24,000 bases of DNA from assembly GCA_052170315.1 (NCBI GenBank), contig JBQNAT010000010.1:45256-69255 (forward strand), written 5' to 3'. The position numbers and the translations under genes are program-made. Shown here in pieces: positions 1,407-10,874 of this stretch. The notes below the pieces were generated by a model. That model did not search any database and was not told the DNA's origin. It saw nothing but the letters and a program-made list of their open reading frames with translations. Source of the stretch: Sphaerochaeta sp. GTDB lineage: Bacteria > Spirochaetota > Spirochaetia > Sphaerochaetales > Sphaerochaetaceae. The number at the start of each line of letters is the position of its first letter. Position 1 is the first letter of the stretch.

Positions 1407-1435
1407 TTGACAATAGTTGTCGTAAGTGATAAAAC
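1407..1435 (+). promoter_or_regulatory. Candidate sigma70-type promoter for the T-box operon (TTGACA - 17 nt - TAAAAC with upstream TG)
   Basis: TTGACA at 1407-1412, a 17-nt spacer, TGaTAAAAC at 1427-1435. A weaker alternative has -10 TATAAA at 1481-1486 with a poor -35 (TTCAGT, 1458-1463). No TSS data. Confidence 0.4.
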
Positions 1436-1442
1436 CAACGCA

Positions 1443-1481
1443 AATGTTAAACGCAATTCAGTTTGATTTGGGTTTAACATT
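1443..1481. repeat. Perfect 10-bp inverted repeat AATGTTAAAC-N19-GTTTAACATT between the promoter and T-box Stem I (candidate operator or 5' leader hairpin)
   Basis: 1443-1452 AATGTTAAAC is the exact reverse complement of 1472-1481 GTTTAACATT. It sits just downstream of the -10 at 1430-1435 and brackets the alternative promoter's -35. Confidence 0.6.
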
Positions 1482-1500
1482 ATAAAGGCTTTGACGAAGA

Positions 1501-1758
1501 CGGAGCGGGAAGATAGCAAAAGCGAACTGGGTACGGTGTGAGCCAGCTGCGAAGGGCCTGTAAACCTATCACTTCCGAGCCGGAGAAAGAAAGCACGCTG
1601 TGTGAGTAGAGATCTCCCGTGACTGCCGCGTAAGAGCATAAGGCTTGTTGGAGCCTGAGGGGCGCGAAAGCGCAATTTGAGTGGTACCGCGGGTACATAT
1701 CACAGACAGATATGCGGCTCGTCTCAAGGAAAGCAGTCTTTGGGACGGGCTTTTTTTT
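1501..1758 (+). promoter_or_regulatory. T-box riboswitch leader, probable Ile (AUC) specifier, with antiterminator/terminator switch
   Basis: T-box consensus AAUUUGAGUGGUACCGCG at 1674-1691. Stem I base has a GA/K-turn-like motif (CGGAGCG 1501-1507 vs GAGCCG 1577-1582) and helix GGAAG 1508-1512 : CUUCC 1572-1576. The triplet AUC (1568-1570) followed by A1571 lies immediately 5' of that helix, the position of the specifier codon plus conserved purine in characterised T-boxes. Antiterminator: GAG 1679-1681:CUC 1718-1720 and CCGC 1687-1690:GCGG 1714-1717 flank a UGGUA bulge. Its 3' strand overlaps the terminator 5' arm. Confidence 0.85.
1717..1758 (+). terminator. Intrinsic terminator of the T-box expression platform
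   Basis: 5' arm GCUCGUCUCAAGG (1717-1729) pairs with 3' arm CUUUGGGACGGGC (1738-1750), including G-U wobbles, around an 8-nt loop. A U8 run follows at 1751-1758. Confidence 0.8.
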
Positions 1759-1775
1759 ATAGTCGGAGGGGTATC

Positions 1776-4037
1776 GTGGATACTACAAAAACGCAGCTTC
1801 TGGAAGTTGCAGCGCGAATCAGGGAAATGCGGGAAATTCTGAGCCTGTCTCAGGAGGAAATGGCGCATAAGACGGATTTAAGTCTTTCCGAATATCAGAC
1901 TTATGAAAGGGGCGAGTGTGATCTTCCGTTTTCTTTCATTCACAAATGCGCAATGGCGTTCGGTATTGATATTACCGACCTTCTTGAAGGACATTCCACA
2001 CGGCTCACTTCCTATACCGTCACAAGACGCGGCCACGGTCACCAGACTGCCAAGGAGATGGGCATAGACATCCAGAATCTGGCTCCAAAATTCAAAAACA
2101 AAATTGCCGAGCCCTACTGGGTTAAATATGACTACTCCGAGGAGCTTCAGGGCAAACCTATCCAGCTTCAGACTCATGCCGGTCAGGAATTTGACATAAT
2201 CATAGAGGGCTCTCTGCTGGTACAGGTGGGCCTTAATAAGGAAGTTCTGCATGAGGGCGACTGCATTTACTACAAGTCTTCCACACCCCACGGAATGATT
2301 GCCATTGAAGGCCGTGACTGCCTGTTTGTGGCTGTAGTCCTTCCGGGCGAGGACGAAAGCGGCGACTCAAGCATTGCCGCGTCCCTTGCTCCAGTTCCTT
2401 CTACCAACAAGCTTGTCGCCAACAAATTCATAGAGTGCGCAGAAGACAAAAACGGCAGCCTGCAGGCCGTAAAATACAAAAATACTGAATCTTTTAACTT
2501 TGCATACGACATTGTTGACGCAATCGCGGATAAATATCCCGATAAGCTTGCGATGATACACCTTGACATAAACAAGTCGGTAAGGCGTTTTACCTTTATG
2601 GACATGAAGAAGGAAAGCGCACGGGTTGCGAACTACTTTGCAGCCTTGGGAATTGGCAAGGGCGATAAGGTAATGCTTGTTTTAAAAAGGCATTATCAGT
2701 TCTGGCCTGCAATTATAGCCCTTCATAAAATAGGAGCCGTAGCCATACCTGCAACCTACCAGCTTAGAGAGCATGACTTTATTTACAGGTTCAATTCCGC
2801 AGGTGTAAAGGCTATAGTCTGCACCGCTTCCGGAGACTGCGCGGAGATAGTGGACAGGGTACAGAGTCAGTGTCCGACGCTGGAGATTAAGATGCTGGTA
2901 AACGGGACGCGTGAAGGCTGGAGGGATTTCAACAGGGAATACCCGATGTTCAAGAGCTCTTTCAGGCGCGGCCCGGATACTCCTTGCGGAAATGACAGCG
3001 CTCTTATGTTCTTCTCTTCCGGCACAACCGGCAATCCCAAGATGGTTGAGCACAGGCATACCTACGCGCTGGCGCACTATGTCACTGCAAAATACTGGCA
3101 CTGCTGCCGGCCTGACGGCCTTCACTTTACAATTTCGGATACGGGCTGGGGCAAGTCCCTGTGGGGCAAGCTTTACGGGCAGTGGATGTGCGAAGGAGCG
3201 GTTTTTGTCTATGACTTTGACCGCTTCCACGCGGACGATATCCTGCCTCTGTTCGCCCAATATCATATAACTACCTTCTGCGCCCCGCCCACGATGCTCA
3301 GGATGATGGTCAAGGAAGACCTTTCAAAATACGATTTCTCTTCCGTAAAGCACATGACTACTGCAGGCGAAGCGCTGAATCCTGAAGTAGGCAGTCAGTT
3401 CTATAAGGCTACGGGTCTTGAGATATGCGAAGGCTTCGGACAGACGGAGACAACGCTTACCGTCGCGAATTTCGGCGGCAATGTCAAAATCGGTTCAATG
3501 GGCAAGGCGTCTCCTCAGTACAGTGTAATGCTTGTTGATAGTGACGGACTTCCCGTGGCTCCGGGTGAAGTGGGCGAGATTGCGATAGATATCTCCGGCG
3601 GCGCCCCGATAGGTCTTTTCACGGAGTACTACAGGGATAAGGAAAAGACGTCCGAGGTAATGCGCGGCGGTCTGTACCATACCGGTGATACCGCATGGCA
3701 GGATGAGGACGGCTATTTTTTCTATGTTGGCCGCGTTGACGACATTATCAAGTCTTCCGGTTACAGGATAGGGCCTTTCGAGGTCGAGTCCGTAATAATG
3801 GAGCTTCCATATGTGCTTGAGTGCGGAGTTTCGGCTACTCCCGACCCTGTAAGAGGACAGGTTGTAAAGGCCTCTATAGTACTTACACGGGGTACGGAGC
3901 CCAGCGAAAAGCTCAAAACGGATATACAGGACTATGTGAAAACACATACTGCGCCGTACAAATACCCGCGTCAGGTGGTTTTCAGGGATGAACTTCCCAA
4001 GACCGTAAGCGGAAAAATAATCAGAAGCGCCCTTTAG
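1776..4037 (+). CDS. Tri-domain fusion: XRE-family HTH + cupin sensor domain + medium-chain (MACS/ACSM-like) AMP-forming acyl-CoA synthetase
   Basis: GTG at 1776 lies 6 nt after GGAGG (1765-1769) and just after the terminator; the ORF-track start at 1677 lies inside the T-box. HTH: LSLSQEEMAHKTDLSLSEYQTYERGE. Cupin: THAGQEFDIIIEG...GDCIYYKSSTPHG. ACS domain: FNFAYDIVD, FFSSGTTGNPKMVEH, EGFGQTETT, YHTGDTAWQDEDGYFFYVGRVDDIIKSSGYRIGPFEVES, PKTVSGKIIR. The frame is continuous, with no internal start or RBS at the junction. Confidence 0.85.
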   Translation: MDTTKTQLLEVAARIREMREILSLSQEEMAHKTDLSLSEYQTYERGECDLPFSFIHKCAMAFGIDITDLLEGHSTRLTSYTVTRRGHGHQTAKEMGIDIQNLAPKFKNKIAEPYWVKYDYSEELQGKPIQLQTHAGQEFDIIIEGSLLVQVGLNKEVLHEGDCIYYKSSTPHGMIAIEGRDCLFVAVVLPGEDESGDSSIAASLAPVPSTNKLVANKFIECAEDKNGSLQAVKYKNTESFNFAYDIVDAIADKYPDKLAMIHLDINKSVRRFTFMDMKKESARVANYFAALGIGKGDKVMLVLKRHYQFWPAIIALHKIGAVAIPATYQLREHDFIYRFNSAGVKAIVCTASGDCAEIVDRVQSQCPTLEIKMLVNGTREGWRDFNREYPMFKSSFRRGPDTPCGNDSALMFFSSGTTGNPKMVEHRHTYALAHYVTAKYWHCCRPDGLHFTISDTGWGKSLWGKLYGQWMCEGAVFVYDFDRFHADDILPLFAQYHITTFCAPPTMLRMMVKEDLSKYDFSSVKHMTTAGEALNPEVGSQFYKATGLEICEGFGQTETTLTVANFGGNVKIGSMGKASPQYSVMLVDSDGLPVAPGEVGEIAIDISGGAPIGLFTEYYRDKEKTSEVMRGGLYHTGDTAWQDEDGYFFYVGRVDDIIKSSGYRIGPFEVESVIMELPYVLECGVSATPDPVRGQVVKASIVLTRGTEPSEKLKTDIQDYVKTHTAPYKYPRQVVFRDELPKTVSGKIIRSAL

Positions 4038-4057
4038 GGCTTTTGACGGGAGTAAAA

Positions 4058-4849
4058 ATGAAGATTTCGTGCATTCAGATGGACATGAAATTTGCCTCAC
4101 CAAAAGAGAACTTCGAAAAAGCCGAAACGCTTATACGTAAGGCTGCTTCTTTCGGTCTCGATACGGTTCTGCTTCCCGAAACATGGAACGTCGGCTTTTT
4201 TCCAAGGGAAAACCTTTATGCCCTTGCGGACAGGGACGGAGCCGAAGTCCGGCGTGTTTTCTCCTCATTGGCAGAGGAACTTGGGATAAACATAGTCGCG
4301 GGAAGCGTAGCGAATATTAAGGACGGCGGAGTATACAACACAGCTCTTGTCTTTGACAGAAGCGGCAGGTGCGCTGCGGAGTATGATAAAACCCATCTTT
4401 TTTCACCTATGGATGAGGATAGGTACTTTAAAAAAGGAGAACATGCCTGTGTCTTTGAACTTGACGGGCGCAGGTGCGGCCTTATCATCTGTTATGATGT
4501 GCGTTTTCCTGAGTTTACAAGGACAATGGCGGTACAGGGCATTGACATTCTTTTCATGGTATCGCAGTGGCCTCTTGCAAGGGTTGCCCATCTTGATGCT
4601 CTTACAAAGGCAAGGGCAATAGAGAACCAGATGTTTGTTGTCTGCTGTAATTCGGCAGGAAAAGCGGGCGATACCGTTTACGGCGGAGCTTCTTCCATAA
4701 CCGACCCATGGGGAGTAACGATAGCTCATGCGGAAGGTCATGGTGAAGAAATTATAACGGCGGAATGTAATATGGACATTCTAAATGGAATAAGAAACAG
4801 CATAAACGTCTTCTTTGACAGAAGACCGGAACTGTACGGAGTAAACTGA
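4058..4849 (+). CDS. Carbon-nitrogen hydrolase (nitrilase superfamily), omega-amidase (YafV/MtnU/Nit2)-like
   Basis: ATG at 4058 lies 5 nt after GGGAG (4048-4052); the track's TTG at 4043 is less likely. Glu-Lys-Cys triad contexts: LPETWN, YDKTHLF, GLIICYDVRFPE. About 263 aa, typical of small Nit-branch amidases. Confidence 0.8.
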   Translation: MKISCIQMDMKFASPKENFEKAETLIRKAASFGLDTVLLPETWNVGFFPRENLYALADRDGAEVRRVFSSLAEELGINIVAGSVANIKDGGVYNTALVFDRSGRCAAEYDKTHLFSPMDEDRYFKKGEHACVFELDGRRCGLIICYDVRFPEFTRTMAVQGIDILFMVSQWPLARVAHLDALTKARAIENQMFVVCCNSAGKAGDTVYGGASSITDPWGVTIAHAEGHGEEIITAECNMDILNGIRNSINVFFDRRPELYGVN

Positions 4850-4873
4850 TTTTTTTAGGCAAAGGAGATATTT

Positions 4874-5968
4874 ATGGACTACAATTTTCCGGTTACAAGG
4901 ACAACACATCCCAGGCCTAGGCCTCAGGACCAGACAAAGCTGGGATTCGCGAAGTATTTCACGGACCACATGTTCTGCATGGATTGGGATGAAGGACAGG
5001 GCTGGCACGACGGAAGAGTTGTTCCTCACGAGGCTATCCTGATAGAGCCCGCGTCCTGCGTTCTTCACTATGCGCAGATGATGTTTGAAGGTATGAAGGC
5101 ATACAGGACGGCAAAAGGAGAAATCCAGATTTTCAGGCCCGACATGAATGTCAGAAGGATGGCAAGAACCAACGAAAGAATGTGCATTCCGGAGCTTCCG
5201 GGAGACATACTTCTTGCAGGTATAAAGGCCGTCATCAAGGAAGACATTGACTGGGTGCCTACGGCTCAGGGAACGGCGCTTTATATCAGGCCGTTTATCT
5301 TCGGAGATGAGGTTTCCTTCTCCGTTCTTCCTGCAAAGCATTACAGATTCATGATAATCCTTTCTCCTACAGGCTCGTACTATGCTGCAAACGACGGAGG
5401 ACTTTCCGCGACAAGAATATATGTGCAGGATAAGTACATCCGTGCGGCGAAGGGCGGCACAGGCTATGCCAAGGTGGGCGGCAACTACGGCGGAGGCATG
5501 AGAGCCAGCCAGGACGCTATGAAATACGACTGCAAAGATGTACTATGGCTTGATGCGGCGGAGCATAAATATGTAGAAGAAATCGGAACCTCCAACGCCT
5601 TCTTCGTTCTTAACGATGAAGTTATAACAGCGCCGCTGGATTCCGAGACAATTCTTCCGGGCATCACAAGAGATTCTGTAATAAGGTTGCTGAAGAAGTG
5701 GGGAGTGAAGGTAACGGAAAGAAAGCTTTCCATTGATGAAATAATGGAAGGAAGCCGAAGCGGTGCCCTTAAGGAAATATTCGCTTCCGGTACCGCCGCT
5801 GTAATTTCCCCTATAGGCACACTTTGCGTAAAGGGCAGCGACTACACTGTAGGTGACGGGAAAGTGGGGCCGATTGCCCAAAAGCTTTACGACAACATTT
5901 ACGGTATGCAGACCGGTAAGATTGAAGACTACATGGGCTGGATTTACAAACTGGGGCTTAAAGCGTGA
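4874..5968 (+). CDS. ilvE: Branched-chain amino acid aminotransferase (fold-type IV, long ~360-aa form)
   Basis: RBS AAAGGAGA lies upstream of ATG 4874. N-terminal LGFAKYFTDHMF signature, PLP-lysine context GGTGYAKVGGNYG, length 364 aa. Confidence 0.9.
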   Translation: MDYNFPVTRTTHPRPRPQDQTKLGFAKYFTDHMFCMDWDEGQGWHDGRVVPHEAILIEPASCVLHYAQMMFEGMKAYRTAKGEIQIFRPDMNVRRMARTNERMCIPELPGDILLAGIKAVIKEDIDWVPTAQGTALYIRPFIFGDEVSFSVLPAKHYRFMIILSPTGSYYAANDGGLSATRIYVQDKYIRAAKGGTGYAKVGGNYGGGMRASQDAMKYDCKDVLWLDAAEHKYVEEIGTSNAFFVLNDEVITAPLDSETILPGITRDSVIRLLKKWGVKVTERKLSIDEIMEGSRSGALKEIFASGTAAVISPIGTLCVKGSDYTVGDGKVGPIAQKLYDNIYGMQTGKIEDYMGWIYKLGLKA

Positions 5969-6609
5969 AGAGGCTTTCACTTTTCTGCGGACACTACGGC
6001 AGCGGGAAAACCAACCTTGCCGTGAATTACGCTCTTTATCTTCGGAAGCTGGGTTTGGAGGTAACAATAGCCGATTTGGATATTGTTAATCCGTATTTCA
6101 GGTCAAAGGACAGTTTTGAGACCCTTGAAGCCGAGGGCGTTAAGGTCATTGCCCTGCCGTTCGCAAACAGCAGCGTGGACCTTCCCGCCCTGCCAAGCGG
6201 GGCCTATGCTCTTGTTCAGGATAAAAGCCGCTATGCCGTTTTGGACATAGGCGGCGATGACAGAGGAGCATATGCCCTTGGGCGTTTTGTTCCTTATATC
6301 CTTGAAGAAAACAACTATGACATGTTCTATGTTGTCAACTTCTACAGACCTCTTACATCAAACGCAAAAGAGGCTATGGAAGTGATGAGGGAAATTGAAG
6401 GCGCCTGCGGACTTGAGTTTACAGGTATCATCAACAATTCCAATCTTGGGGCGGAAACCACGGCGGAGAAGATACGCTTTACCTTTCCTGAGGCGGAACG
6501 GCTTTGCGGTCTTTCGGGACTTCCGCTTACCGCGGTAACGGCAGAAGAGAGCGCGGCGGAAGGCGCAATGGTGAAAATAAAGCTTCAAAAGCGTCCCTTT
6601 GAGGTCTGA
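5965..6609 (+). CDS. Uncharacterised P-loop NTPase (SIMIBI/MinD-ParA-CobQ-like ATP-binding protein)
   Basis: GTG start overlaps the ilvE stop (GTGA, 4-nt overlap), implying translational coupling. Walker A GHYGSGKT at residues 9-16; Walker B-like VLDIGGDD. No recognisable catalytic domain beyond the NTPase fold. Confidence 0.65.
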   Translation: MKRLSLFCGHYGSGKTNLAVNYALYLRKLGLEVTIADLDIVNPYFRSKDSFETLEAEGVKVIALPFANSSVDLPALPSGAYALVQDKSRYAVLDIGGDDRGAYALGRFVPYILEENNYDMFYVVNFYRPLTSNAKEAMEVMREIEGACGLEFTGIINNSNLGAETTAEKIRFTFPEAERLCGLSGLPLTAVTAEESAAEGAMVKIKLQKRPFEV

Positions 6610-6655
6610 GAGACGGAAATTAAAGGAATTTGATTCTTCAAAAGAGGTGAGCTGT

Positions 6656-6862
6656 ATGGCGAAAGTAACATTCAACGAAGACATTTGTAAGGGGTGCGGA
6701 CTATGTATTGACGCATGTCCCCGGCACATACTCGCGCTTGATAAAAACAAGATTAACAGGAAGGGACATAACCCTGCCGTGATTACCGAGCAGTCTAAAT
6801 GCATAGCCTGCGCCTTTTGCGCTGTAATGTGTCCTGACTGTGTGATAACCGTGGAGAAGTGA
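6656..6862 (+). CDS. 2x[4Fe-4S] ferredoxin-type delta subunit of 2-oxoacid:ferredoxin oxidoreductase
   Basis: ATG 6656 is preceded by AGAGGTGA; the track start at 6599 is rejected. Two CxxCxxCxxxCP motifs (CKGCGLCIDACP, CIACAFCAVMCP). 68 aa, ending 1 nt before the alpha subunit. Confidence 0.85.
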   Translation: MAKVTFNEDICKGCGLCIDACPRHILALDKNKINRKGHNPAVITEQSKCIACAFCAVMCPDCVITVEK

Positions 6863-6863
6863 T

Positions 6864-7931
6864 ATGACAGAAAAAGTTTTGATGAAAGGAAACGAAGCCA
6901 TTGCCGAAGCCGCCCTTAGAGCGGGTTGCCGTCATTATTTCGGTTATCCGATAACTCCGCAGACGGAGCTTACAGCCTATATGGCAAAGCGTCTTCCAAA
7001 GTTGGAAGGCGGTGTTTTCCTTCAGGCGGAAAGCGAGGTCAGCGCAATAAACATGGTTTACGGCGCATCCGGCGCGGGAAAGAGAGTCATGACAAGCTCA
7101 TCTTCCCCGGGGATATCGCTTAAACAGGAAGGCATTTCCTATATTGCCGGAGCGGATCTTCCCGCAGTGATAGTAAACGTCCAAAGAGGCGGTCCGGGTC
7201 TGGGAGGAATCCAGCCGTCACAGTCCGACTATTTCCAGGCAACCAAGGGCGGCGGACACGGAGACTATCATCTTATAGTACTGACTCCAAGCTCCGTTCA
7301 GGAAATGGCTGATTTGACAAGCCTTGCCTTTGATCTTGCAGATAAGTACCGCTGTCCGACAATGCTGCTTGCAGACGGGACAATGGGACAGATGATGGAG
7401 CCGGTACTGCTTCCCGAACCTCATTGCTCAGCTGTTGCCAAGCCGTGGGCGCTTACCGGAACCGGAATGAAGAGAGAGCACAACGTCATAAATTCACTTT
7501 ATCTTGTACCTGAGGTGCTGGAAAAAATGAACCTTGAACGCTTCGAACGCTATAAAGAAATTGAGGAAAACGAAGTCCGCTTTGAAAGCTATCTTATGAA
7601 TGACGCGGACTACTGCCTTGTAGCCTTCGGTATTGCTGCCCGTGTAGCCAAGAATGCCATAACAATTATGAGAAAAGACGGTATTAAGGCAGGTCTGATA
7701 AGACCTATTACTGTTTGGCCGTTCCCGAAGAAGGCTATCAGTGAAGCAGCAAAAAAAGTCAAAGGCTTTGTAAGTGTTGAGCTTTCAATGGGGCAGATGA
7801 TAGAAGACGTCAAGCTTGCGGAAGAGTGCCTTCGTCCCGTAGCTCTATGCAGAAGAGTCGGCGGAATGATTCCCGGCGTTGACCAGATAATTGACGTAAC
7901 AAAAAAACTGGCGGAAGGAGGCGTGCGATAA
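6864..7931 (+). CDS. 2-oxoacid:ferredoxin oxidoreductase alpha subunit (VorB/KorA-type)
   Basis: N-terminus KGNEAIAEAALRAGCRHYFGYPITPQTE is characteristic of OFOR alpha subunits. 355 aa, in a delta-alpha-beta-gamma set. Confidence 0.9.
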   Translation: MTEKVLMKGNEAIAEAALRAGCRHYFGYPITPQTELTAYMAKRLPKLEGGVFLQAESEVSAINMVYGASGAGKRVMTSSSSPGISLKQEGISYIAGADLPAVIVNVQRGGPGLGGIQPSQSDYFQATKGGGHGDYHLIVLTPSSVQEMADLTSLAFDLADKYRCPTMLLADGTMGQMMEPVLLPEPHCSAVAKPWALTGTGMKREHNVINSLYLVPEVLEKMNLERFERYKEIEENEVRFESYLMNDADYCLVAFGIAARVAKNAITIMRKDGIKAGLIRPITVWPFPKKAISEAAKKVKGFVSVELSMGQMIEDVKLAEECLRPVALCRRVGGMIPGVDQIIDVTKKLAEGGVR

Positions 7932-8683
7932 TGGCCGTTGTTTTTCAGAAACCGAAAAGTCTTACATCCAAAGAGATGCATTACTGCCCGGGCTGCCCTC
8001 ACGGGATTATCCACAGGCTTGTGGCGGAGGCTATTGACAGCCTTGGCATAGAAGGAAAAACCGTAGGCGTTGCCCCTGTAGGCTGTGCGGTTCTTGCATA
8101 CGATTATTTTACCTGCGATATGGTTGAAGCGGCTCACGGAAGAGCCCCGGCAGTTGCGACGGGTCTTAAAAGAGCCTTGCCTGAAAATATTGTTTTCACT
8201 TATCAGGGCGACGGGGATCTTGCCTCAATAGGTATGGCTGAAACAGTCCACGCGGCTACCAGAAACGAGAATATCACAATCATTTTCGTTAATAACGCCA
8301 TTTACGGAATGACAGGCGGCCAGATGGCGCCCACTTCGCTTCCGGGTCAGATAACTCAGACATCTCCATACGGACGTGACGTGAAAACCGCCGGTTATCC
8401 GATACGTGTATGCGAGATGCTTGCCGCCCTTGATGCTCCTTACTATATTGAGCGCGTTGCCGTGAACAGCGTGAAGAACGTCCTGAAAGCAAAAAAAGCC
8501 GTTGAGAAGGCCTTCCGCAATCAGGTCGAGGGCAAGGGCTTCTCTCTGATAGAGCTGATTTCGGCCTGTCCTACAAACTGGGGACTTACGCCTGCAAAGG
8601 CGCTTGAATGGGTAAAAGATAAGATGATTCCTTACTATCCGCTTGGGGTTTTCAGGGACAAAGATACGGAGGCGGCGAAATGA
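7931..8683 (+). CDS. 2-oxoacid:ferredoxin oxidoreductase beta subunit (TPP-binding)
   Basis: Start overlaps the alpha stop by 1 nt (TAATG). HYCPGCPHG cysteine motif and TPP-binding GDGD...NNAIYGMTGGQ. Confidence 0.9.
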   Translation: MAVVFQKPKSLTSKEMHYCPGCPHGIIHRLVAEAIDSLGIEGKTVGVAPVGCAVLAYDYFTCDMVEAAHGRAPAVATGLKRALPENIVFTYQGDGDLASIGMAETVHAATRNENITIIFVNNAIYGMTGGQMAPTSLPGQITQTSPYGRDVKTAGYPIRVCEMLAALDAPYYIERVAVNSVKNVLKAKKAVEKAFRNQVEGKGFSLIELISACPTNWGLTPAKALEWVKDKMIPYYPLGVFRDKDTEAAK

Positions 8684-9210
8684 CTACACAGATTCTTATA
8701 GCAGGCTTCGGAGGACAGGGTATTCTGTTTTCAGGAAAACTTCTTGCGTACAAGGCGCTTTCAGAAGGAAAAGAGCTTTCATGGCTGCCTTCCTACGGAC
8801 CTGAAATGAGAGGCGGCACAGCCTCCTGCTCCGTAACGGTAAGCGATGAACCTGTAGGTTCTCCTATTATTGACCATCCTGATGTGCTTATAGTTATGAA
8901 CCTTCCGTCTTTAGACAGATATGAGGACTCAGTAAAGCCCGGAGGCATGATTTTCGTGGATTCCAGCCTTGTTGAAAGAAAGGTGAAGAGAACAGACGTA
9001 AAAGCTTTTTACATACCCGCAACCAGGCTTGCTCAGGATATGGGCGCAGGAAACCTTGCCAACATAGTCCTTCTTGGAAAAGTCATGAAAGACTGTTCTG
9101 CGGTTTCAGGAAACGGACTTGAAGAGGCTCTTCGCAAGGTTGTTTCCGCAAAGCACCCCGAAATGTATGAAATTAATCTTAAGGCCATTGAAACCGGGTA
9201 TAGCTACTGA
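8680..9210 (+). CDS. 2-oxoacid:ferredoxin oxidoreductase gamma subunit
   Basis: ATGA overlap with the beta stop. ILIAGFGGQGILFSGKLLA N-terminus is typical of OFOR gamma domains. 176 aa. Confidence 0.9.
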   Translation: MTTQILIAGFGGQGILFSGKLLAYKALSEGKELSWLPSYGPEMRGGTASCSVTVSDEPVGSPIIDHPDVLIVMNLPSLDRYEDSVKPGGMIFVDSSLVERKVKRTDVKAFYIPATRLAQDMGAGNLANIVLLGKVMKDCSAVSGNGLEEALRKVVSAKHPEMYEINLKAIETGYSY

Positions 9211-9248: not shown

Positions 9249-10874
9249 GTGAGTTTTAATGTTGAAGATGCGATGAAACTTCCTTCCATGAAGGGCGCCA
9301 GGCTTGCCGCGGGACAGAACGGCGTTAAATCAAACATTCTGGCCGTTACGGTTTTTGAATACAAAGGTTCAAAAGACCTTCAGAACAGGTTCATGGCTTT
9401 AAATTCCGGAAAACTTAACGGTAAGCTTGTTCTTGCAAGCTTCGCGTCAATGGAGAGAGATACGGAGCTTCAGCGAAGATGTCTGGAGTATATGGCAAAA
9501 GGGGGAGCTTCCGCTCTTGTCCTTTATTATGTAGGCGTTATTCTTAAAGAAGTAGGCAGAAGCCTTAAAGATACTGCGGATTCCCTGTCTCTGCCCGTTA
9601 TTGTAATGCCTGAAAACAAGCTGGATATTGGTTATGACGCTCTTATTTCGGAAGTATCGGAATCCGTGCTGACAGCGGGCGCAGATTATAACGAAAATCT
9701 TGCCACGGAAATAATCGGTCAGGTTTCAAAGCTGCCTGCCGACAAACAGACAGTAGATTCGGTTTTAAATCTTCTAAGTTCAAAGCTTAATGCCGGTATA
9801 ATACTTACAGACGGCAGTCTTAATAATCTTGGGGAGTCCTTTAAAGGCGGAATTTCTGTTCAGGGTGTCCTGAACGAAGAAAATGTCCCTCATCATATAA
9901 AACGCAAAAAGGCTTTCGCCCCGGTTCCCGGCAGTTTTATATGGTATGCCCCTATACATGACAGAGGCGTTGAGCCCATGAGGCTCTTCCTTATTGAAGA
10001 CGGAAATTCTCTTAATGAGATGCGTGTAGATATGGCCCGCGCCGCAGTTCAGCTTGCTGTGGAACTTTGGAGCAACAGCCACAGCGAGGTTTTGACATCG
10101 GAACTTGTTAAAGCAATCCTCAATGACGAACCAATAAGGATGAGAAGGCTGAGCGAAGTGCTGCGCATTGATATCAAGTCCATCCACAACTCCTGGTTCA
10201 TACGCTGTACCGACGGAAGAAGTCATTTTTCCTATGAAATGATAAAGGCTGTCAGGGATGTTATGAACAATCTTGATTCCGAGATACTTCTGGAATCCTA
10301 CAGACCCACGCCGGGCAATTCGGATGACCTGATAATGTTTTTCAGAAATCCGCTGGATGCAAAGCTTCTGAATAACTGCGCGCGCTCTATAATTGAAAAT
10401 CTCCACGGCCTTGGCTGCAATCATGTTTATCTTACCATGCTGGATTACAAGTTCACTACCGCAGATGTGAGAAATGCCTTTTCCATATGGAATGAGAACG
10501 AGGCTAAGGCCAGAACCGTTTTCCCCGCTCTTGAAATATTTCACGAATCTGAAATAGAGCTTGCAAGACAGTGCGATGCGATAATAAAGCTTGGGGAAGC
10601 AAGCATAGCTTCCGCAACCGACTGTCTGTACGCGCTTGAAGAGCGACACGGCTCGGAAGAGTTTTTAAAAACGCTTGAAGTTTACTTCCTTGACGCGGAC
10701 ATGAACATGCAGAAGGCCTCCGAGATTCTGGGTGTTCATAAAAATACAATAAAGTACAGGATAAATATTGTATGCGACGCGCTTGGTCATTCCGTAAATA
10801 ATCCTGTTACAACCTCTCGTCTTACCATAGCGCTTGCAATCAGGCGTCTGCTTGATAAGGCAGGCGCAATTTAA
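9249..10874 (+). CDS. PucR/CdaR-family transcriptional regulator
   Basis: GTG 9249 lies 6 nt after GGAGG (9238-9242). N-terminal PucR-like domain (LPSMKGARLAAGQNGVKSNILAVTVFE). C-terminal PucR-type HTH (MQKASEILGVHKNTIKYRINIVCDALG). Confidence 0.8.
   Translation: MSFNVEDAMKLPSMKGARLAAGQNGVKSNILAVTVFEYKGSKDLQNRFMALNSGKLNGKLVLASFASMERDTELQRRCLEYMAKGGASALVLYYVGVILKEVGRSLKDTADSLSLPVIVMPENKLDIGYDALISEVSESVLTAGADYNENLATEIIGQVSKLPADKQTVDSVLNLLSSKLNAGIILTDGSLNNLGESFKGGISVQGVLNEENVPHHIKRKKAFAPVPGSFIWYAPIHDRGVEPMRLFLIEDGNSLNEMRVDMARAAVQLAVELWSNSHSEVLTSELVKAILNDEPIRMRRLSEVLRIDIKSIHNSWFIRCTDGRSHFSYEMIKAVRDVMNNLDSEILLESYRPTPGNSDDLIMFFRNPLDAKLLNNCARSIIENLHGLGCNHVYLTMLDYKFTTADVRNAFSIWNENEAKARTVFPALEIFHESEIELARQCDAIIKLGEASIASATDCLYALEERHGSEEFLKTLEVYFLDADMNMQKASEILGVHKNTIKYRINIVCDALGHSVNNPVTTSRLTIALAIRRLLDKAGAI

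Follow-up and report, generated by a model that had tools for sequence, protein, structure and literature searches.

An XRE-cupin module fused to a putative 2-methylbutyrate-CoA ligase under T-box control in Sphaerochaeta

What does a helix-turn-helix (HTH) domain of the DNA-binding type do in the same polypeptide as an acyl-CoA ligase? This question is raised by a gene located in a stretch of 24,000 nucleotides (nt) from Sphaerochaeta sp. (GenBank assembly GCA_052170315.1, contig JBQNAT010000010.1, positions 45,256 to 69,255 of the forward strand). The whole of this stretch is hereafter called the window, and its own numbering is used for positions. On the forward strand, one open frame runs from a GTG codon at 1776 to a stop codon at 4035-4037 and encodes a protein of 753 amino acids (aa) that contains: (i) an XRE-type HTH domain; (ii) a cupin barrel; (iii) a linker; and (iv) a MACS-type acyl-CoA synthetase. 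An earlier interpretation of this DNA, made from the letters alone (the sequence-only reading), had seen in it a possible regulator-enzyme fusion that could report the presence of substrate at the DNA level, in addition to the demand for product reported by a T-box riboswitch. According to the analysis presented here, the fusion belongs to a widespread and uncharacterised partnership between XRE-cupin proteins and short-chain acyl-CoA ligases. To judge from sequence comparisons, its enzyme is very probably a 2-methylbutyrate-CoA ligase of an isoleucine-salvage pathway, and the protein is probably not an operator-binding repressor.

The fused protein and its distribution

The co-occurrence of an HTH-cupin module and a complete MACS-type ligase in one frame, as first proposed in the sequence-only reading, was confirmed by a Pfam scan in which all four domains exceeded their curated cut-offs: (i) HTH_19 with 35.0 bits (cut-off 30.2) and HTH_3 with 27.5 bits (cut-off 23), at residues 13-72; (ii) Cupin_2 with 37.9 bits (cut-off 27.2), at residues 129-187; (iii) AMP-binding (PF00501) with 208.6 bits (cut-off 29.9), at residues 250-605; and (iv) AMP-binding_C (PF13193) with 73.6 bits (cut-off 24.5), at residues 669-747. 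This architecture joins an enzyme and an HTH fold in a single polypeptide. In the translation, the ligase core motifs A3, A5, A7, A8 and A10 are intact, including the catalytic lysine (SSGTTGNPK, GFGQTET, YHTGD, GRVDDIIKSSGYRIGPFE and PKTVSGKI), and the comparison of motifs discriminates, the divergent paralogue P0124 being without them. The Ser/Ala/Pro-rich join quoted earlier corresponds to the linker between module and ligase (residues ~191-213). Within the N-terminal module, the XRE HTH is followed by the cupin, and the fold model matches the structure 1Y9Q; modelled in isolation, the module reaches a predicted local distance difference test score (pLDDT) of 82.8, with values of 87-95 in the HTH and 88-96 in the cupin.

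Independent assemblies contain the same protein, which has been deposited under the accession MGP1508376.1 with the title "AMP-binding protein [Sphaerochaeta sp.]". The four-domain architecture is shared by more than 120 protein clusters (753-781 aa); at 50% clustering, only ~3 full-length representatives are left. The fused family is, in consequence, narrow in sequence space, yet abundant. When species-representative genomes were scanned with a profile of the N-terminal module, 587 of the first 600 pattern matches listed encoded relatives, and the comparisons of fused genes reported below (leaders, promoters, classes) are drawn from the best 80 loci among the matches listed. These 80 loci come from two Sphaerochaetaceae-like genomes and ~78 Clostridia (Acutalibacteraceae, Oscillospiraceae, Ruminococcaceae and Christensenellaceae). 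The fusion is complete and in frame, at 751-763 aa, in 72 of them; in seven it runs off the contig and in one (L057) the frame is interrupted. The complete fused orthologues therefore span two phyla. Since the same fusion is complete in 72 loci and independent assemblies contain the identical protein, an artefact of frameshift or assembly, a concern of the sequence-only reading, is excluded; the search for the spread of the architecture also makes it clear that the orthologues of the two parts are not always separate genes. In the literature, no description was found of the fusion, of T-box control of operons with ligase and 2-oxoacid:ferredoxin oxidoreductase (Vor) genes, or of the gene cluster in rumen bacteria.

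The ligase, its T-box leader and its pathway

The closest solved relative of the ligase is Macs of Methanosarcina acetivorans (MacsMa, PDB 3ETC), which matches the whole ligase part with an E value of 2e-184 and whose pocket tryptophan is retained as W441 in the window protein. MacsMa prefers 2-methylbutyrate (PMC10455477), so that the statement of the sequence-only reading on a Methanosarcina enzyme with this preference is correct. The best NCBIfam model for the ligase is MbcS, with 428.9 bits against an equivalog cut-off of 850, a score that classes it as a member of the family and not as an MbcS equivalog. MacsMa and the MbcS of Staphylococcus aureus belong to the same enzyme family as the window ligase and very probably share its chemistry: both activate 2-methylbutyrate, and MbcS also activates isobutyrate (PMC10455477, PMC10026030). 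Both lack the N-terminal HTH-cupin module that is present in the window protein. The three enzymes also differ in context, namely amino-acid salvage under a T-box for the window enzyme, fatty-acid priming for MbcS and an undefined role for MacsMa.

The fused gene is the first of an operon (1776-9210) and is preceded by a promoter and a T-box leader whose specifier, an AUC codon, stands for isoleucine (Table 1). The Rfam model RF00230 matches this leader over the full model length with 49.3 bits at an E value of 8e-10, short of the gathering score of 93; the specifier, the T-box sequence and the terminator stand in the correct order, and the leader is conserved in the related loci L001 and L002. 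Two leaders of the valine type (L006, L011) pass the gathering score with 95-96 bits. More generally, a T-box motif lies ~100 nt upstream of 135 of the 142 fused genes, and promoters of the form TTGACA-17-TGnTATAAT with A/T-rich UP-like tracts precede 123 of 129 fused-gene leaders. The promoter of the window, whose -10 box ends in C, was missed by a simple promoter scanner and was read directly.

Most Clostridia loci (among L006-L083) contain a tandem pair of fused paralogues, both of them preceded by a promoter and a T-box of their own (e.g., L008 6007-8275 and 8650-10900). The specifier of the window was assigned through its alignment with the Rfam model, those of the other leaders through a MAFFT alignment. 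In the 132 aligned leaders, the first copy carries ATC (Ile) in 77 cases and the second copy GTA or GTC (Val) in 54; no copy with a leucine specifier was seen among these 132 leaders. The window carries the Ile copy only. In 113 of 113 cases, the specifier class predicts the protein clade, as judged by the nearest neighbour, and it is because the class tracks the clade in this way that the window enzyme is assigned as a very probable 2-methylbutyrate-CoA ligase. The comparison strongly suggests 2-methylbutyrate as the substrate of the window enzyme (Ile) and isobutyrate as that of the Val paralogue. The link between 2-methylbutyrate and isoleucine put forward in the sequence-only reading has thus been strengthened, both by the AUC specifier and by the clean separation of Ile- and Val-type paralogues through their own T-boxes.

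It is long established that anaerobes of the rumen and gut need isobutyrate and 2-methylbutyrate, which they carboxylate to valine and isoleucine, respectively; such "isoacids" are fed to dairy cattle. A literature search returned no paper naming the genes for the carboxylation of these two acids in rumen or gut bacteria. In the window, the genes that follow the fused gene (4043..9210) encode a CN-hydrolase, a branched-chain aminotransferase (BCAT), a P-loop NTPase, a ferredoxin and a VorB/VorA/VorC-like oxidoreductase; L001-L005 have this gene order too, and most Clostridia loci preserve part of it. Transcription would start from a constitutive-looking promoter and be gated by the T-box riboswitch, which would read uncharged tRNA-Ile. 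The encoded proteins would then act in three steps: (i) the ligase converts 2-methylbutyrate to its acyl-CoA, consuming ATP; (ii) the Vor enzyme, together with ferredoxin, reductively carboxylates the acyl-CoA to the 2-oxo acid; and (iii) the 2-oxo acid is transaminated to isoleucine. This enzyme-and-pathway part of the explanation is held with high confidence.

T-boxes are mainly a Firmicutes device. In a comparison of window 1407-9210 with L002 and L006-L083, the proteins of the T-box-controlled operon of this Sphaerochaeta share ~77% identity with their Clostridia counterparts, which suggests that the cassette was transferred horizontally in its entirety, the riboswitch with it.

The role of the N-terminal module

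Within each specifier class, identity amounts to 0.59-0.70 in the HTH, 0.70-0.72 in the cupin and 0.72-0.75 in the N-domain of the ligase, against 0.31-0.33 in the linker, which is the least conserved segment of the family (16% identity between classes). As the module keeps 59-72% identity where the linker keeps 31%, these values argue for a functional module under purifying selection and not for a decayed one. The sequence-only reading had offered, as an alternative, that the HTH is vestigial and the cupin modulates the enzyme allosterically. The first half of this idea is contradicted by the conservation of the HTH; the second comes closer to the reading favoured here. Between the Ile and Val classes, identity is 0.45-0.53 in the module and 0.68-0.86 in the ligase, and 16 of the 18 positions fixed differently between them fall in residues 1-213 (binomial P 1.4e-7). 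Class-specific changes in the module include E94A, I97M, I99Y, K109R and Y114L; those in the ligase are only G459A and G474A. Invariant in both classes are H134-x-G-Q-E138, D140, D162, S168 and P171-H172.

The module also exists as a separate protein. An unfused relative of the ligase, P0131, has 26 nt upstream of it a gene for a 182-aa HTH-cupin protein which is equally acidic and shares 37% identity with the window module over its whole length (E 3e-38). This standalone protein has ~920 relatives, which go by the names "XRE family transcriptional regulator" or "cupin domain-containing protein". In three more, otherwise unrelated neighbourhoods, including that of the cultured Christensenella timonensis, a ligase of 552-558 aa starts 10-22 nt after the standalone gene. 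The ligase lies directly downstream of the standalone gene in 70 of 76 testable metagenome loci, where the gap is inferred to measure between -2 and 113 nt. Of the other six loci, two retain a downstream ligase, one behind a frameshift and the other after a larger gap; in all, the two genes are neighbours in ~95% of testable loci. In the metagenome scan, a T-box was found in none of 68 split loci, and no Vor or aminotransferase genes were found nearby. Several split pairs follow coding sequence without an intergenic promoter, the preceding gene in L093 being plsY (G3P_acyltransf); this neighbour and the absent promoter are hints of a lipid-priming role for the split pair. Adjacency is not universal among related ligases, as the unfused ligase P0126 has no HTH-cupin neighbour.

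On one side of the window linker, the sequence aligns with the C-terminus of the standalone protein, and on the other with the N-terminus of the neighbouring ligase; the fusion therefore joined two adjacent partner genes, whose intergenic gap became the linker. A 706-aa relative, P0123, was considered as a further carrier of the module and dropped: its N-terminus is different, without any Pfam domain or resemblance to the module.

Two observations on other members of the family may be added. First, P0124 (L085 4493-6769) is a fused paralogue that keeps the cupin motif and has degenerate ligase motifs (A3 QSYSYGMAKP, A7 HTGT, and A10 NGVV without the catalytic lysine). Its gene follows an intact fused gene after 72 nt, with no T-box between them, and is known from a single contig; the protein is possibly a pseudo-enzyme whose role is regulatory alone. 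Second, the ligase-family members P0125, P0137, P0129 and P0233 carry C-terminal fusions to a GNAT acetyltransferase, a glyoxalase/VOC domain or a PAS-histidine kinase-receiver. This ligase family seems prone to gaining regulatory or signalling partners.

Regarding DNA binding, the net charge of the HTH is -7 in the window protein (residues 9-74), with means of -6.4 in the Ile class, -5.6 in the Val class and -7.4 in the standalone family; in a reference set of only five DNA-binding XRE domains, PuuR among them, it ranges from -2 to +4. The positions aligned with the base-contacting residues of the 434 repressor are occupied by L/V/E/P, mostly E, E and variable residues, and glutamate predominates at 38 and 39. 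Promoter-anchored conservation profiles of 129 fused-gene promoters revealed no operator, and nothing besides an A/T tract of the UP type, TTGACAAA and an extended -10 box; the median distance between the -10 box and the T-box is ~20 nt. The longest inverted repeats in fused-gene promoter regions are barely above those of shuffled controls (5.9 vs 5.4). Upstream of 66 distinct standalone loci, a search for dyads and 8-mers found no shared dyad, only promoter boxes, A/T tracts and ribosome-binding sites. The AND-gate of the sequence-only reading, in which the protein would supply a transcriptional substrate signal and the T-box a demand signal, is consequently left unsupported, given the acidic HTH and the lack of a conserved operator at ~190 promoters.

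Gene pairs that are nearly always adjacent, tightly spaced and independent of their neighbourhood, and that occur both split and fused, usually encode physical partners. On account of this pattern of adjacency and fusion, of the acidic HTH and of the missing operator, a role at the protein level is judged most likely for the module, which would partner the ligase in a sensing, regulatory or activating function; this has close to an even chance of being correct. The 753-aa polypeptide would work mainly as an enzyme, and its module would descend from a standalone acidic XRE-cupin protein whose gene, in almost every case, immediately precedes that of an unfused ligase from the same family. The conserved His/Glu/His pocket of the cupin would hold a metal or the common part of a ligand, and the class-specific residues would set the Ile and Val branches apart. 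In the most economical form of this mechanism, a ligand specific to the pathway, be it the end product or the acid, would control the committed step allosterically; end-product feedback on the ATP-consuming first step would complement the T-box. A more specific and rather doubtful version holds that an acidic XRE-cupin subfamily gave up DNA binding and became a set of small-molecule-sensing regulatory subunits of short-chain acyl-CoA ligases, separate or fused, and that the fused Ile and Val modules throttle the ATP-consuming step in response to a branch-specific end product or precursor. Taken as a whole (enzyme, pathway and module acting at the protein level), the explanation is as probable as its contrary.

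Several points weigh against a protein-level role. The HTH passes the Pfam thresholds, and a profile search of the PDB with the module, needed because a direct sequence search gave a single weak HTH match, retrieves XRE repressors (PbsX-family, DdrO, C.AhdI, SinR and the 434 repressor). The putative DNA-facing residues of the window protein (S, Q, S, L, S, E, Q, T, R, E, C) show no drastic difference from those of PuuR, and an acidic charge is an argument, not a proof, that DNA is not bound. Operators could differ from species to species and so evade a search for conservation, and adjacency of the kind observed would also result if a transcription-factor gene and its target formed a two-gene operon, with the former in first place. 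Just downstream of the window promoter there does lie a perfect 10-bp inverted repeat (Table 1), tying for the longest among 74 promoter regions. As regards contact between module and ligase, a full-length AlphaFold model from a 17-sequence alignment (mean pLDDT 65.5, predicted template modelling score 0.58) did not resolve any, and the length, flexibility and variability of the linker are more in keeping with an independent domain on a tether than with an allosteric one in tight packing. As to the repeat, it is absent from the related loci L001, L002, L004 and L005, and its 10-mer is not otherwise enriched in the window. Because the closest relatives are without it, the repeat appears to be lineage-specific and not a feature of the family; it could be a lineage-specific operator, a 5' RNA hairpin or the remnant of an insertion.

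The alternative that survives best is that of a trigger enzyme, in which the module binds an operator in its own promoter according to the acid, acyl-adenylate or acyl-CoA, in the manner of BirA, so that transcription requires both substrate and demand. BirA itself forms an acyl-adenylate, biotinyl-AMP, which serves as its corepressor. As in the window protein, a DNA-binding fold and a pathway enzyme share one chain in BirA, NadR, PutA and the archaeal RbkR, the last of them an enzyme-repressor fusion (PMC5397151). These fusions have demonstrated operators and DNA binding and a winged HTH or ribbon-helix-helix fold, in contrast to the window protein, which has an XRE domain plus a cupin, no operator found and control by a riboswitch. 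Closer in architecture are the XRE-cupin factors (Escherichia coli PuuR; Pseudomonas PauR, PsdR and ErfA), whose N-terminal XRE HTH and C-terminal cupin correspond to the window module and which act as local regulators of neighbouring metabolic genes, sensing pathway metabolites that release them from palindromes (PMC7901475). PuuR even has the HxGxE...PH cupin motif in common with the module, although in BLASTP only its HTH region aligns with the window protein, at 24% identity. The XRE-cupin factors are free-standing, palindrome-binding dimers with a neutral-to-basic HTH (+1 to +3 in PuuR), whereas the window module is enzyme-fused and strongly acidic.

Other observations that fit a trigger enzyme are the resemblance of the HTH, which is above the Pfam thresholds and under purifying selection, to DNA-binding XRE domains, the inverted repeat at 1443-1481, the fusion of ligase relatives to signalling modules such as the PAS-histidine kinase-receiver, the retention of the module in P0124 despite its decayed ligase motifs, and a report of an acyl-CoA ligase that is a transcription factor (PMC12754631). 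Nevertheless, the HTH is acidic (~-6 to -7) in fused and standalone proteins alike, with L/V/E/P, E, and E or variable residues at the equivalents of the 434-repressor base contacts; the 129 promoters conserve their core elements alone and leave a median of ~20 nt before the T-box; inverted repeats hardly exceed those of shuffled sequences, and the 66 standalone genes share no dyad; the repeat of the window is missing in its closest relatives; and some split pairs have no promoter of their own. A trigger enzyme is hence considered rather unlikely.

A second alternative is that the module is a structural partner which senses no ligand, that is, a subunit for dimerisation, solubility or activation comparable to MbtH-like proteins, with class-specific residues that only prevent mixed Ile/Val dimers. 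MbtH-like proteins partner adenylation domains, which belong to the same adenylate-forming superfamily; likewise, IlvN/IlvH is the small subunit of acetohydroxyacid synthase, and IlvN confers end-product feedback by valine. In both systems a small partner is encoded beside the catalytic gene, separate or fused, as in the split and fused forms of the module. This is an analogy only: neither has kinship of sequence or fold to the module, and the partnership described here is inferred from gene order and fusion. Tight spacing and the existence of split and fused forms of one pair do suggest a stoichiometric complex, cupins commonly form dimers, and a concentration of class-specific residues in the module is to be expected if the paralogues must avoid cross-pairing. 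Still, the invariant His/Glu/His and polar residues of the cupin point to a metal or ligand site for which a pure scaffold has no need, and the class-specific hydrophobic swaps I97M, I99Y and Y114L look like those of a binding pocket. A purely structural role is accordingly rated as unlikely, and the protein-level reading with ligand sensing is preferred to it.

A third alternative makes the module a second catalytic domain, namely a metal-dependent cupin of the HppE type that acts on the acid, the acyl-CoA or the adenylate, for instance by proofreading or hydrolysis of wrong substrates. In Foldseek, the nearest matches to the two-domain fold are 1Y9Q, which is an uncharacterised protein from structural genomics with a regulator annotation, and the phosphonate-pathway iron enzymes HppE, HEPD and MPnS (E 1e-9 to 6e-13, identity 17-19%); HppE is also the best full-length two-domain match of the sequence profile after 1Y9Q. 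These enzymes combine, like the module, an HTH-like helical domain with a cupin that has His/Glu/His, and the HppE positions aligned with H134, E138 and H172 are presumably its metal ligands; the motif also aligns with 1Y9Q. The HTH-like domain of these enzymes is not known to have a DNA-binding role. The premise of the sequence-only reading that HTH-cupin proteins are small-molecule-responsive repressors holds for the XRE-cupin factors studied in Pseudomonas and E. coli, but it is not universal, since enzymes are among the closest folds. A concern for fidelity does exist in the ligase family, as MacsMa reportedly mishandles non-preferred acyl-adenylates (PMC10455477). The triad, however, is not diagnostic of catalysis because the proven repressor PuuR shares it, identity to HppE is only 17-19%, and the pathway requires no additional reaction. 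Furthermore, HppE, HEPD and MPnS differ from the module in that they belong to unrelated pathways, use oxygen-dependent chemistry and have no association with acyl-CoA ligases; no phosphonate genes were found in any locus examined, the neighbours in the window being BCAT, ferredoxin and Vor genes. Such oxygen-dependent chemistry is improbable in the hosts, gut and rumen taxa that are presumably anaerobes. A second catalytic domain is, in short, very unlikely.

Finally, an artefact (frameshift or mis-assembly) or a decaying N-terminal relic, for which there speak the interrupted locus L057 and otherwise prior probability alone, is rejected as practically inconceivable on the grounds of the independent assemblies, the 72 complete fused orthologues and the conservation of the module relative to the linker (59-72% vs 31%).

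Neighbouring genes and significance

The features discussed above are collected in Table 1.

Table 1. Features of the fused gene, its leader and its operon in the window, and location of the split gene pairs in other loci.
Feature	Position	Strand	Basis
Promoter: -35 box TTGACA 1407-1412, 17-nt spacer, TG 1427-1428, -10 box TAAAAC 1430-1435	1407..1435	+	direct reading
Perfect 10-bp inverted repeat AATGTTAAAC-N19-GTTTAACATT, between -10 box and T-box	1443..1481	+	sequence
T-box leader	1482..1759	+	Rfam RF00230 and element order
Specifier AUC (Ile), then A (1571)	1568-1570		
T-box sequence TGGTACCGCG	1682-1691		
Terminator stem, 15 pairs, with T-run 1751-1758	1716-1751		
Ribosome-binding site GGAGGGG and GTG start codon	1765-1771; 1776-1778	+	direct reading; orthologue N-termini align from this start
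Fused gene, 753-aa protein	1776-4037	+	one open frame
XRE-type HTH domain, residues 13-72	1812..1991	+	Pfam HTH_19/HTH_3
Cupin barrel, residues ~86-190	2031..2345	+	Cupin_2; invariant H134-x-G-x-E138, P171-H172
Variable Ser/Ala/Pro/Glu-rich linker, ~23 aa, residues ~191-213	2346..2414	+	conservation comparison
MACS-type acyl-CoA synthetase with native N-terminal extension, residues 214-753	2415..4037	+	Pfam, 3ETC match, motifs
CN-hydrolase (nitrilase/amidase superfamily)	4043-4849	+	Pfam
Branched-chain aminotransferase (BCAT)	4874-5968	+	Pfam; NCBIfam 444 vs cut-off 307
P-loop NTPase, 214 aa	5965-6609	+	Pfam
Ferredoxin	6599-6862	+	Pfam
VorB/VorA/VorC-like 2-oxoacid:ferredoxin oxidoreductase	6864-9210	+	Pfam; VorB NCBIfam 542 vs cut-off 399
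Standalone HTH-cupin (181-187 aa) and unfused MACS-type ligase	L090 2904-5167; L091 8001-10215 (Christensenella timonensis); L093, L095; L096-L175		

Some genes of the operon and its surroundings deserve a separate comment. The P-loop NTPase has weak CbiA/ParA matches only and no NCBIfam family. Its gene immediately precedes those of the ferredoxin and Vor in almost every related locus, and the protein is a candidate factor in maturing or assembling the oxidoreductase. The CN-hydrolase, encoded between ligase and aminotransferase in Sphaerochaetaceae-type operons and a few Clostridia (L014, L017) and absent from most, could be an omega-amidase that pulls glutamine-dependent transamination forward. 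After the Vor genes comes a gene for a PucR-family regulator (9249-10874), found also in a related Sphaerochaetaceae-type locus (L001 18915-20540), which might be the conventional transcription factor of the region. Upstream of the operon, the gene at 74-1381 encodes the C-terminal part of a different acyl-CoA ligase. Its relatives (L001 7140-9596; L086 2667-5150) are proteins of 818-827 aa with an N-terminal AP_endonuc_2 domain (a xylose-isomerase-like TIM barrel), encoded beside a LeuA/HMGL-like gene; this is a second unusual ligase fusion. In one Ruminococcaceae locus, a 6S RNA gene (L011 4809-4997, reverse strand; Rfam 55.5 bits, above gathering) is located ~1 kb upstream of the pair of fused genes.

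For the carboxylation of branched short-chain acids by gut and rumen anaerobes, a set of genes is now available for testing: the two ligase paralogues, labelled Ile and Val by their riboswitches, and, besides a ferredoxin and a conserved P-loop protein, a Vor enzyme common to both paralogues. As for the module, the partnership of XRE-cupin proteins with ligases occurs hundreds of times, split or fused, and is annotated publicly as no more than "XRE family transcriptional regulator" or "AMP-binding protein". DNA binding by the module would make the protein a rare adenylate-forming enzyme-repressor comparable to BirA. If the module senses for the enzyme, many proteins annotated as transcription factors would be mislabelled, and the module would represent a new type of regulatory domain for adenylate-forming enzymes, built on a repurposed helix-turn-helix fold, that would place fast protein-level feedback on top of the slower control exerted by the T-box.

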